Source of the DNA: an uncultured Mycoplasma sp.
GTDB taxonomy: Bacteria; Bacillota_I; Bacilli_A; RF39; UBA660
Assembly: GCA_902493595.1 (NCBI GenBank)
Contig: CABUPU010000004.1
Span: 9,958-73,957, forward strand
DNA: 64,000 nucleotides
Direction of reading: 5' to 3'
In this document: one piece after another, positions 35,028 to 36,848 of the stretch
Layout of the letters: the number at the start of each line of letters is the position of its first letter
Position numbering within the stretch: position 1 is the stretch's first letter
Program-made: the position numbers and the translations under genes
Notes under the pieces: generated by a model
Seen by the model: only the letters and a program-made list of their open reading frames with translations
Database searches by the model: none
Told to the model about the DNA's origin: nothing

Positions 35028-35104
35028 TGGCGGGGTATATCAACTGGCTAGATAGTTCGGTTCATACCCGAAATGTTGGGGGTTCGAGTCCCTCCCCCGC
35101 TACC
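35028..35104 (+). tRNA. tRNA-Met (anticodon CAT), elongator type
   Basis: GGCGGGG-TA-TATC-AACTGGCTA-GATA-G-TTCGG-TTCATAC-CCGAA-ATGTT-GGGGG-TTCGAGT-CCCTC-CCCCGCT-A-CCA. It is close to B. subtilis elongator tRNA-Met (G1-U72). Confidence 0.85.
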
Positions 35105-35115
35105 AAATAAATTTA

Positions 35116-35139
35116 TGTCAAACATTAATGTTTGACTTT
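35116..35139 (+). terminator. terminator after tRNA-Met
   Basis: Perfect palindrome GTCAAACATTAATGTTTGAC followed by TTT. Confidence 0.55.
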
Positions 35140-35275
35140 AATAAATAACTAATTCTAGTAAGGGTTAGTTTTTTTATACTATTAAAACTGTTTAAAAATC
35201 AATTAAGAAAAATAAATTTTTATTTAAAAAGTATTGCATATTGTCAATAAATAGTGTATATTACTTATTGAGATG

Positions 35276-35316
35276 TGCCTAGGAAACTTTAGAAGCCCTA
35301 GGTCTTTTTCATTTTA
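35276..35316. repeat. 40-bp direct repeat copy 1 with a CCTAGG-palindrome hairpin (terminator-like), 12 nt upstream of the abi RBS
   Basis: GTGCCTAGGAAACTTTAGAAGCCCTAGGTCTTTTTCATTT; compare 36250-36289. Confidence 0.65.
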
Positions 35317-35328
35317 TAGGAGGTAAAA

Positions 35329-36216
35329 ATGGCTAAAGAATTTAAATCAACAAATGAATTATTAGAAATAATTAATTCAAAAGGTTTATTAGTAAAAGAT
35401 AATAATAATTTCAGATATCTAATTGGAAAGTACTCATATTATTCAATAGTAAATACTTATAAGCTGATATTTAAAATTGGAAATAACTATAAAAATAACG
35501 CTTCGTTCGAAGAAATATTTGCAATGTATAAGTTTGATAAGAACTTAAAAATAATAATGCTTAAATATATTCTTGAAATTGAAGCTGTTATTAAAACAAA
35601 AATTGCTAATCTATTTGCTGAAAAGTATGGATTAGAAGATTATTTAAATATTAACAATTTTGATTTAAAAGATGATAATTCTAATTTAGAACATATAGAA
35701 AAATTAATTGAAGAAATAAAAAATGAAATTGATAAAGGAAATGGTAAACATGATGCAATAACTCATTATATGAATAAGTATGGATTTGTTCCACCTTGGG
35801 TTGTTACTAAAATATTATCTCTTGGAACTATTAGTAAATTTTATGGTTTAATGAAACAACAAGATAGACAAGAAATAAGTAAGCAATTTCATATAAATGA
35901 TAGAATATTAAAAAATATTCTTGGTAATTTAACATCAGTTCGTAATATAGCAGCTCACGATGATAGATTATATACCTATAGAAGTACTTTCTATATTAGA
36001 TTAGACAAAACTAAAAAATCACCAGATAAAGTATTACATACAAATATGTATATAATAATTAAATCGTTGGAATTATTATTAGAAAACGATCAAGCAATTG
36101 AAATGAAAAACTTAATTATAAAGGAATTAGATATATTAAAAAATAGTTTAACTTCAATAAAAATTGATGAAGTATTAAAGGTAATGGGATTCGATAAGAA
36201 CTATTACACTGCATAA
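35329..36216 (+). CDS. abortive infection protein, Abi_2 family (AbiD/AbiD1/AbiF-like)
   Basis: 295 aa with the conserved 'SVRNIAAHDDRLYTYR' motif of Abi_2. It is a tRNA-adjacent, single-gene islet. Confidence 0.6.
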   Translation: MAKEFKSTNELLEIINSKGLLVKDNNNFRYLIGKYSYYSIVNTYKLIFKIGNNYKNNASFEEIFAMYKFDKNLKIIMLKYILEIEAVIKTKIANLFAEKYGLEDYLNINNFDLKDDNSNLEHIEKLIEEIKNEIDKGNGKHDAITHYMNKYGFVPPWVVTKILSLGTISKFYGLMKQQDRQEISKQFHINDRILKNILGNLTSVRNIAAHDDRLYTYRSTFYIRLDKTKKSPDKVLHTNMYIIIKSLELLLENDQAIEMKNLIIKELDILKNSLTSIKIDEVLKVMGFDKNYYTA

Positions 36217-36249
36217 ATATTGATTCACAGCATATAATAATAATGAAAA

Positions 36250-36289
36250 GTGCCTAGGAAACTTTAGAAGCCCTAGGCCTTTTTCATTT
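36250..36289. repeat. 40-bp direct repeat copy 2 (GCCTAGG-N13-CCTAGGC hairpin + T-run), terminator of abi
   Basis: GTGCCTAGGAAACTTTAGAAGCCCTAGGCCTTTTTCATTT. Confidence 0.65.
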
Positions 36290-36435
36290 ATCTCATTATA
36301 AAAGTAATGATAAACATGATGAAAAATGAATACTAATATAAGATTAATTGTTTATGAAATATTTTTGAAGTTTCAAACATACAACGTATTTGTACGGAAT
36401 AAATATTTAATAGATAGAAATATCTATTTTTTTTT

Positions 36436-36461
36436 AAACAAAATAAAGTGTTCAGTCAAGA
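36436..36461 (+). terminator. rho-independent terminator
   Basis: AAGTGTTC-agtcaa-GAACACTT followed by TTTTT. Confidence 0.5.
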
Positions 36462-36590: not shown

Positions 36591-36848
36591 GTGAGCATAT
36601 TGCATAATAAAAATGATGAAAATTATATTTATTATTTAGTTGCTCACAACCTAAAATCTATTAGAAAGAAAAAAGGATTTACTCAAGCTAAATTTGCAGA
36701 ACTTTGTAATTATAGTGAAGGATTTATAATGAATATTGAAAGTAATAAATATTTACAAACATTTAGTTTAGGAACACTTTGGAAGTTTGCCCAAGTTTTA
36801 GAAATTGATATACGAGAGTTATTTATACCAATTGATGATAATAAATAA
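36591..36848 (+). CDS. XRE-family HTH protein (GTG start)
   Basis: 'LKSIRKKKGFTQAKFAELCNYSEGFIMNIESNK'. Confidence 0.5.
   Translation: MSILHNKNDENYIYYLVAHNLKSIRKKKGFTQAKFAELCNYSEGFIMNIESNKYLQTFSLGTLWKFAQVLEIDIRELFIPIDDNK

Follow-up and report, generated by a model that had tools for sequence, protein, structure and literature searches.

An Abi_2-family gene bracketed by two copies of a covarying RNA hairpin in uncultured gut Bacilli, and orphan hairpins in phage tRNA arrays

The recognition of AbiF systems as RNA-antitoxin modules is recent, and it has been proposed that Cas13 descends from them; to our knowledge, few of their RNA partners have been characterised, and we know of no solved structure in the family other than that of PbAbiF (PDB ID: 8VZ6). 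Here we describe a locus of this type from an uncultured gut bacterium, located in a 64,000-nucleotide stretch of contig CABUPU010000004.1 (hereafter the window, to which all positions refer), in which an Abi_2-family gene, abi, has one copy of a short hairpin on either side. Among the closest described systems, the PbAbiF homodimer binds two AbiFr RNAs, by which its HEPN site is blocked (Zilberzwige-Tal et al., Cell 2025, as summarised in PMC12737573), and RCd22 of Clostridioides difficile, a leader RNA with two abiF motifs, binds and neutralises AbiF in cis as well as in trans (PMC12373285). In the AbiD1 system, a 50-nt RNA ends at a terminator just upstream of the gene, and this leader terminator restricts read-through (PMC2661086); AbiF and AbiD-like activity requires the upstream promoter-terminator sequence (PMC11381338). 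On the phage side, the sk1 cos site, a hairpin, has been reported to affect AbiF (PMC13064643), and phage phiTE escapes ToxIN by means of pseudo-ToxI, a set of antitoxin-like RNA repeats (PMC3475682).

We consider it probable that the window locus is a self-contained abortive-infection module of the AbiD/AbiF type, composed of a gene for a HEPN RNase toxin and of the module's own structured RNA in two copies. The hairpins are most likely the RNA antitoxin of abi, as judged by position and analogy, and not an insertion scar, which had been one of the options offered by an earlier reading of the bare DNA (the sequence-only reading). The features of the locus are listed in Table 1.

The abi gene, its hairpins and their signals

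By its profile matches, the 295-aa product of abi is a member of the Abi_2 (AbiD/AbiF) family, which confirms what the sequence-only reading had taken from an RNIAAHDDRLY motif. Pfam Abi_2 (PF07751) matched residues 33-215 over profile positions 4-183 of 184, with an E-value of 2.5e-45 and 155.5 bits against a cut-off of 25.6, and PADLOC matched the protein to AbiD with an E-value of 5.3e-55; no family match was obtained in NCBIfam. The protein aligned over its full length to PbAbiF (E 6.4e-18), RNIAAH being placed over the catalytic RNSCCH. This Rx4H signature, R205-N-I-A-A-H210, conforms to the R-x4-6-H pattern required of HEPN proteins, and R205, N206 and H210 were invariant among 11 homologues with identities down to 49% (alignment A1). 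Residues R210 and H215 of the PbAbiF motif are needed for activity (PMC12373285), and by analogy the window protein may be an RNase that is toxic and protects against phages.

The 40-nt repeat around abi was located at 35275-35314 and 36250-36289, the copies differing by one T/C substitution, much as had been read before, with the first coordinate one or two nucleotides off. No further copy was found in the 64-kb window with three mismatches allowed (two matches in total versus none in 100 shuffles), and the covariance model R1 likewise gave just two matches there; within the window, at least, the repeat is not a common motif. The similarity reaches 49 nt (35266-35314 versus 36241-36289, 92% identity), and 46-nt RNAs of both copies are predicted to fold into a hairpin, at -12.6 kcal/mol (z -2.1) and -16.5 kcal/mol (z -3.7), respectively. 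The copies thus fold as proposed, but the palindrome CCTAGG, on which the hairpin was thought to be built, is incidental: the stem covaries, and CCTAGG is the version found in this clade.

A scan of one genome per species yielded 80 related loci from gut metagenome-assembled genomes, labelled as Bacilli, Tenericutes, Clostridium sp. CAG:417 and Candidatus Onthousia, with protein identities of 46-94%. In 75 of the 76 loci that have both flanks, one hairpin lies ~45 nt before the ATG and another ~45 nt after the stop codon, on the strand of the gene. Alignment A2 comprises 116 distinct 52-nt instances, collected by the pattern AAACTT..GAAG, in which the stems were unconstrained and the loop AAACUUUNGAAGC was included. 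Within stems P2 and P3, 99.8% of the cells are paired, and compensatory double changes occur in five of the seven P2 pairs (138 cells). None of 500 shuffles reached the observed values, pairing fell to 53-58% when the partner column was slid by one, and RNAalifold independently gave the same P2 and P3. Stem P1 joins columns 5-8 with 40-43, its pair 8-40 being UA in 48 instances, AU in 42, UG in 24 and unpaired in 2; a register joining columns 5-10 with 39-44 fitted the alignment only in part and was rejected in favour of the former. The consensus runs from P1 through a loop (5' N-G-U, 3' C), P2, a second loop (5' AAA, 3' C) and P3 (CUU/AAG) to the loop U-N-G. Many of the pairs are G-U, 57 of them at pair 12-38, and this favours an RNA transcribed from the sense strand. 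Judged by this comparison of sequences, the hairpin is a selected RNA structure. The stem arms of the two copies differ in 71 of 79 locus types and pairing is kept in each; since the copies have diverged and both still pair, their duplication is old and both are kept by selection.

The Rfam model of the abiF motif, RF03085, gave no match at E <= 10 in queries of 1.8 kb and 71 nt on both strands, and no Rfam family other than tRNA was hit in the searches of the repeats. Phage phiC2, used as a positive control, matched RF03085 with 37.6 bits against a gathering score of 37, and model R1 found nothing in phiC2.

The sigma-A-like promoter that had been read ahead of the upstream copy is present (Table 1), and the start of the cassette transcript is predicted near G35270. 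Among 75 distinct upstream regions, the -10 element matches the consensus in at least five of six positions in 71 and the -35 element in at least four of six in 49, in the same position (background 15% and 16%, respectively), and a GGAGG-like element recurs where the ribosome-binding site (RBS) stands in the window. A consensus promoter scan, uninformative in AT-rich DNA (13 promoter-like sites against 19 expected), missed the cassette promoter, the -35 of which matches in just 3/6 positions. Downstream of the gene, TATAAT is perfect in 61 of 81 distinct regions and matches 5/6 in the other 20, always exactly 6 nt before a conserved GA, a 6/6 match being found at 1.5% of background positions. 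No good -35 was seen for copy 2, its best match never rising above 3/6 across the downstream regions, and a promoter of its own is plausible but unproven. In most loci the last codon and the stop read TG(T/C/A)ATAA (36208-36216 in the window), though the encoded residue varies (V, A or E); this suggests a constraint at the nucleotide level ~17-18 nt upstream of the copy-2 TATAAT, where the sequence is possibly a weak -35.

At least five U within 8 nt past the stem follow 79 of the 79 distinct upstream copies versus 34 of the 79 downstream ones. In the window's clade, copy 2 has such a U-run together with an A-rich 5' flank, like a bidirectional terminator; in more distant clades the U-run is missing and a terminator hairpin of its own stands behind the copy. 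A consensus terminator scan called neither of the window hairpins, the loops of which exceed 8 nt. Promoter, RNA, putative terminator and predicted toxin open reading frame (ORF) can be read as following one another in one unit. The sequence-only reading had found this an odd place for a terminator, but such an arrangement is a hallmark of AbiD/F systems, where the leader RNA is the antitoxin.

Table 1 Features of the abi locus in the window, and orphan hairpins in viral loci
Feature	Position	Strand	Basis or remark
tRNA-Met (CAT)	35029..35105	+	ARAGORN; Rfam tRNA 58 bits; host gene, outside the cassette
Polymorphic insertion, 1,293 bp	35107..36399	+	Occupied window aligned with empty sites L020 and L021
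Sigma-A-type promoter	35234..35262	+	-35 TTGCAT 35234-35239, 17-nt spacer, -10 TATATT 35257-35262; read from sequence
Hairpin copy 1, within the 5' leader and ahead of a U-run	35270..35315	+	Fold, covariation, R1 73.1 bits; predicted antitoxin RNA and attenuator
Copy 1, P1	35270-35273 / 35305-35308	+	
Copy 1, P2	35277-35283 / 35297-35303	+	
Copy 1, internal loop AAA	35284-35286	+	
Copy 1, P3	35287-35289 / 35293-35295	+	Loop UAG 35290-35292; bulged C 35296
RBS AGGAGG	35318..35323	+	14 nt past the stem, 3 nt past the repeat end; read from sequence
Abi_2 (AbiD/F-family) gene, 295 aa, predicted HEPN RNase toxin	35329..36216	+	Pfam, PADLOC, PDB 8VZ6
-10 box TATAAT, putative promoter of second RNA	36233..36238	+	6 nt upstream of hairpin copy 2
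Hairpin copy 2, past the stop codon	36245..36290	+	Fold, covariation, R1 68.3 bits; predicted second antitoxin RNA and abi transcript terminator
Copy 2, P1	36245-36248 / 36280-36283	+	
Copy 2, P2	36252-36258 / 36272-36278	+	
Copy 2, P3	36262-36264 / 36268-36270	+	
Orphan hairpins	L135:2595-2619, L136:6517-6541, L113:2438-2489	-	IMG/VR
Orphan hairpins	L114:13165-13212, L116:2645-2696	-	IMG/VR
Orphan hairpin	L149:3420-3471	+	IMG/VR

Insertion beside tRNA-Met and spread of the cassette

The gene had been described as a single-gene islet some 220 bp downstream of tRNA-Met, and its start codon does lie 223 nt past the tRNA gene. Same-species contigs were gathered via the exact sequence of the adjoining helix-turn-helix (HTH) protein and have flanks 99% identical to those of the window; abi is present in 21 of these 24 contigs and absent in 3. 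In two of the latter, L020 and L021, the tRNA-Met gene is identical and model R1 found no hairpin motif in the empty site. The insertion defined against them has ends that are uncertain by ~6 nt because of microhomology at both junctions. Its left end is directly 3' of tRNA-Met (~35107), ~165 nt upstream of hairpin copy 1, its right end (~36399) is ~110 nt downstream of copy 2, and no integrase is found within it. The islet is real and recent, and the hairpin repeats are internal to it. The sequence-only reading had proposed such a comparison of the region downstream of tRNA-Met, with a single repeat copy in view for genomes lacking abi; the empty sites of the same species proved to hold no copy at all.

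The microhomology at the junctions is AATAAA(n3)TTAAT-like (35100-35112 and 36398-36411), and the empty site reads AATAAAACATTAAT. Between tRNA-Met and the abi promoter, the insert holds two terminator-like hairpins with T-runs, at 35117-35139 (GTCAAAC..GTTTGAC TTT) and 35147-35175 (AACTAA..TTAGTT TTTTT), and the original terminator of tRNA-Met is now found to the right of the insertion, at ~36412-36437. The small HTH_3 (Cro/C1-type) gene that adjoins the islet (36591-36848) was considered as a regulator or antitoxin of the cassette and rejected, its sequence being identical in the empty-site genomes. When the first 60 genome loci were scanned, a same-strand gene for tRNA or tmRNA was seen within 2.5 kb upstream in about 10 of them, and the Enterococcus phage vB_EfaS_IME197 has a distantly related Abi_2 gene (31% identity) that likewise lies ~150 nt downstream of a tRNA gene (L112:179-252).

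The flanks of the related loci fall into ~57 clusters, a number that is an upper bound on the distinct genomic contexts. Close homologues (78-88% identity) were found in the gap between znuA and sufC, in the gap between an ABC transporter gene and a serpin gene, and in an element that also encodes a serine recombinase and a relaxase (Mob_Pre); all three contexts preserve the order promoter, hairpin, RBS, gene, TATAAT, hairpin. The repeats therefore follow the gene into dozens of unrelated contexts, which does not agree with the duplicated scar that had been suggested. One locus (L072:1044-3448) contains a truncated second abi in tandem (residues 1-205), in the order motif, fragment, motif, gene, motif, and another (L108:3001-3052) contains a third promoter-plus-motif unit followed by a short ORF only; these two layouts indicate that cassettes can be arrayed and can decay. 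Since strains within a lineage of Bacilli that is common in the human gut differ in having the cassette, and since it has reached many contexts, it would be active in the conflict between gut phages and their hosts.

Orphan hairpins in phages

Scans of IMG/VR with exact patterns (the core and part of the stem) returned 64 viral loci (L113-L176), in which R1 gave 59 matches at E <= 0.01, ~23 of them at 42-65 bits over the full length. Single orphan copies were found in ~50 phage contigs, many of which may come from few phage lineages. No Abi_2 match was obtained in the portions of these contigs that were examined, and an abi gene elsewhere on them is possible. A protein search of viral contigs gave one distant relative only, which indicates that phages rarely carry this clade of the gene, and Rfam found in the phage copies tRNAs only. 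The neighbours are true phage genes, coding for the major head protein, large terminase, amidase and exonuclease. The phage stems also covary: in 29 distinct sequences (alignment A3, fitted to the model and therefore biased toward pairing) 99.3% of the cells are paired, and seven of eight pairs show compensatory change. Certain phage copies, together with their flanks, match those of hosts almost exactly (L116 versus L073).

A tRNA gene lies on the same strand within 50 nt in 42 of 55 phage instances, mostly inside phage tRNA arrays. The hairpin stands 7 nt before tRNA-Thr in ~20 contigs; in others it stands 10-12 nt before tRNA-Gln or tRNA-Glu, abuts the 3' end of tRNA-Thr, or belongs to the leader of an exonuclease gene of the phage, 49 nt past tRNA-Met. 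The L114 copy lies behind a perfect promoter, TTGACA-16-TATAAT, and the L116 copy follows a holin-endolysin module. Within 45 nt upstream of the phage hairpin, a conserved stretch, ..AAAGCCUUAUNUAAGUCC.., was seen in L173, L134, L136, L153 and L135, so that the element in phages may extend beyond the hairpin itself.

The simplest reading of these copies, made by analogy with pseudo-ToxI of phage phiTE (PMC3475682), is that they may be captured antitoxin RNAs that act as decoys against AbiF. A hairpin within a tRNA array would be transcribed together with the tRNAs and freed by tRNA processing. That the hairpin represents a new AbiF-associated RNA class, absent from Rfam, which gut phages have captured as a decoy is a proposal that we put forward tentatively. 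If it holds, these copies would constitute a natural and widespread RNA-based anti-defence directed at a HEPN toxin, and would give a new account of certain non-tRNA spacers of phage tRNA clusters.

The loop C-U-U-U-N-G-A has 7 nt and is shaped like an anticodon loop (C32, U33, UUN, R37, A38). At its variable base N, the 116 host-linked instances (A2 column 26) as well as the 29 phage ones (A3 column 27) have A, C or U, but in no case G. Given this form of the conserved loop and the lack of G at N, the RNA may act as a pseudo-substrate and the toxin may be a tRNA anticodon nuclease; the decoy and the tRNA arrays of phages would then each make up one half of a single counter-defence.

Proposed mechanism, alternatives and known systems

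The following mechanism may be proposed. Copy 1 would be transcribed from the conserved sigma-A promoter, and its hairpin with the U-run would halt most transcripts after ~45 nt, giving an abundant small RNA and slight read-through into the toxin ORF. Copy 2, behind the conserved TATAAT past the stop codon, would be a further source of this RNA and would terminate the transcript of the toxin gene. By analogy with AbiF-RCd22 and with PbAbiF, the Abi dimer would be bound by the hairpins, so that its HEPN active site is blocked. Phage infection would disturb the balance between RNA and toxin, so that the RNase is released and the cell is arrested. Such a type III-like design of a toxin with an RNA antitoxin fits the locus, since PbAbiF, to which the window protein can be aligned from end to end, is a HEPN RNase that an RNA encoded in cis neutralises.

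Several explanations compete with the antitoxin reading. The hairpins might be cis-acting transcription signals only, one attenuating ahead of the gene and the other terminating behind it, with no antitoxin role. The U-run behind every distinct upstream copy, the terminator-like copy 2 of the window's clade and the leader terminator of AbiD1, which limits read-through (PMC2661086), are all in line with this. On the other hand, a 13-nt loop region that is invariant, together with a stem that covaries, across proteins of down to 46% identity would be unusual for terminators (an argument weakened in its first part, since the loop belonged to the search pattern); copy 2 of distant clades lacks the U-run and leaves termination to a separate hairpin; the same hairpin is found within the tRNA arrays of phages, in which stopping transcription would do harm; and in related AbiF systems the leader RNA acts as an antitoxin (PMC12373285). 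We therefore regard a purely cis-acting role as unlikely, while attenuation of the toxin, which had also been suggested for the upstream copy, fits what is described for AbiD1 and RCd22 and would be compatible with an antitoxin. The companion suggestion of a scar fails because the insertion ends lie outside the repeats, and the same observation bears on every reading of the repeats as DNA-level features of a cassette, be it target-site duplications, att/attC-like sites or a scar of insertion at the tRNA gene. Direct repeats around a single gene beside a tRNA gene, found in many contexts, one of them with a serine recombinase and a Mob_Pre relaxase, invite such a reading. It is nevertheless very improbable: the empty sites are free of the motif, copy 1 sits between a conserved promoter and the RBS, strand-specific G-U pairs suit RNA and not duplex DNA, and the copies have diverged in most locus types, unlike a fresh duplication.

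A further possibility starts from the phages, namely that the hairpin is primarily an element of their tRNA arrays which Abi evolved to recognise, the host copies being a sensor, a mimic or a priming ligand. The abundance of R1 matches in viral loci where no Abi_2 match accompanies them (in the portions examined), their covarying stems, true phage neighbours and closeness to tRNA genes, as well as the reported effect of the sk1 cos hairpin on AbiF (PMC13064643), speak for it. A constitutive activator beside its own toxin would, however, injure the host, the cis RNA is inhibitory in the AbiF systems solved or tested (PMC12737573, PMC12373285), and phage copies that are nearly identical to host copies with their flanks suit capture from the host; this possibility is in our view quite unlikely. 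Some points weigh against the antitoxin module itself. One related locus (L105, 46% identity; L105:1760-2920) has the motif on neither side. That P3 and the loop do not vary is due in part to the search pattern, which required them. Independent transcription of copy 2 is uncertain, since it has no convincing -35. Because RF03085 does not match the hairpin, its antitoxin role is argued from position and analogy and not from RNA homology. The hosts are uncultured gut Bacilli, known solely from metagenome-assembled genomes, and function, too, is assigned by analogy. As a separate observation, the leader of L105 differs and has a terminator-like hairpin of its own.

Taken on its sequence, the locus is set apart from known AbiD/F modules by an RNA class that is not in Rfam and by its split 5'/3' layout. 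With this clade there is a second RNA motif that is well supported, covariation being clear across its more than 100 distinct instances, and a new layout in which repeats stand on both sides of the effector gene, with a -10 box before each; this split has a bearing on ways in which single antitoxin RNAs may have grown into repeat arrays.

Compared with the type III systems ToxIN, AbiQ, CptIN and TenpIN, the locus shares a repeated, putative RNA antitoxin of ~35-50 nt and a putative terminator that would set the ratio of RNA to toxin, but the toxin fold is HEPN instead of ToxN/AbiQ, and the repeats flank the gene instead of forming an upstream tandem array. There are other parallels with the lactococcal AbiD1, AbiD and AbiF systems. 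PADLOC calls the window protein AbiD, an upstream promoter-terminator sequence is needed for function and cloning in that family, and the 50-nt transcript in the 76-nt leader of AbiD1 has its counterpart in a copy-1 RNA predicted at ~45 nt in a leader of 59 nt. Unlike the lactococcal systems, the window module is chromosomal and not plasmid-borne, its host is an uncultured gut member of the Bacilli, and a second, downstream copy is unmentioned in PMC2661086, PMC11381338 and PMC13064643.

Like the hairpin of the window, the abiF motif RF03085 is short (~35 nt), consists of two helices, has an internal loop that is asymmetric and is associated with Abi_2 genes, but the asymmetry is on the opposite side, 5' AAA/3' C here versus 5' A/3' CAAAUC in RF03085. 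A reverse-strand reading, in which the reverse complement has the RF03085 topology, was rejected, since neither strand gave a match and the G-U pairing is particular to the sense strand. Flanking repeats were found in none of the other Abi_2 clades compared, namely phiC2, Enterococcus phage IME197 and an IMG/VR Abi_2 locus (L111). PbAbiF-AbiFr and C. difficile AbiF-RCd22 are, like the window locus, built on an Abi_2/HEPN protein of ~300 aa with Rx4H that can be aligned in full to 8VZ6. The AbiF systems with a non-coding RNA have the same sigma-A promoter, structured RNA, U-run and RBS directly upstream of the toxin gene, form single-gene mobile modules, and have two hairpins per locus, a number that matches the two RNA sites of the dimer. 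Unlike theirs, which are in tandem in the leader, the window hairpins are split between the 5' and 3' sides of the gene, each behind a -10 box.

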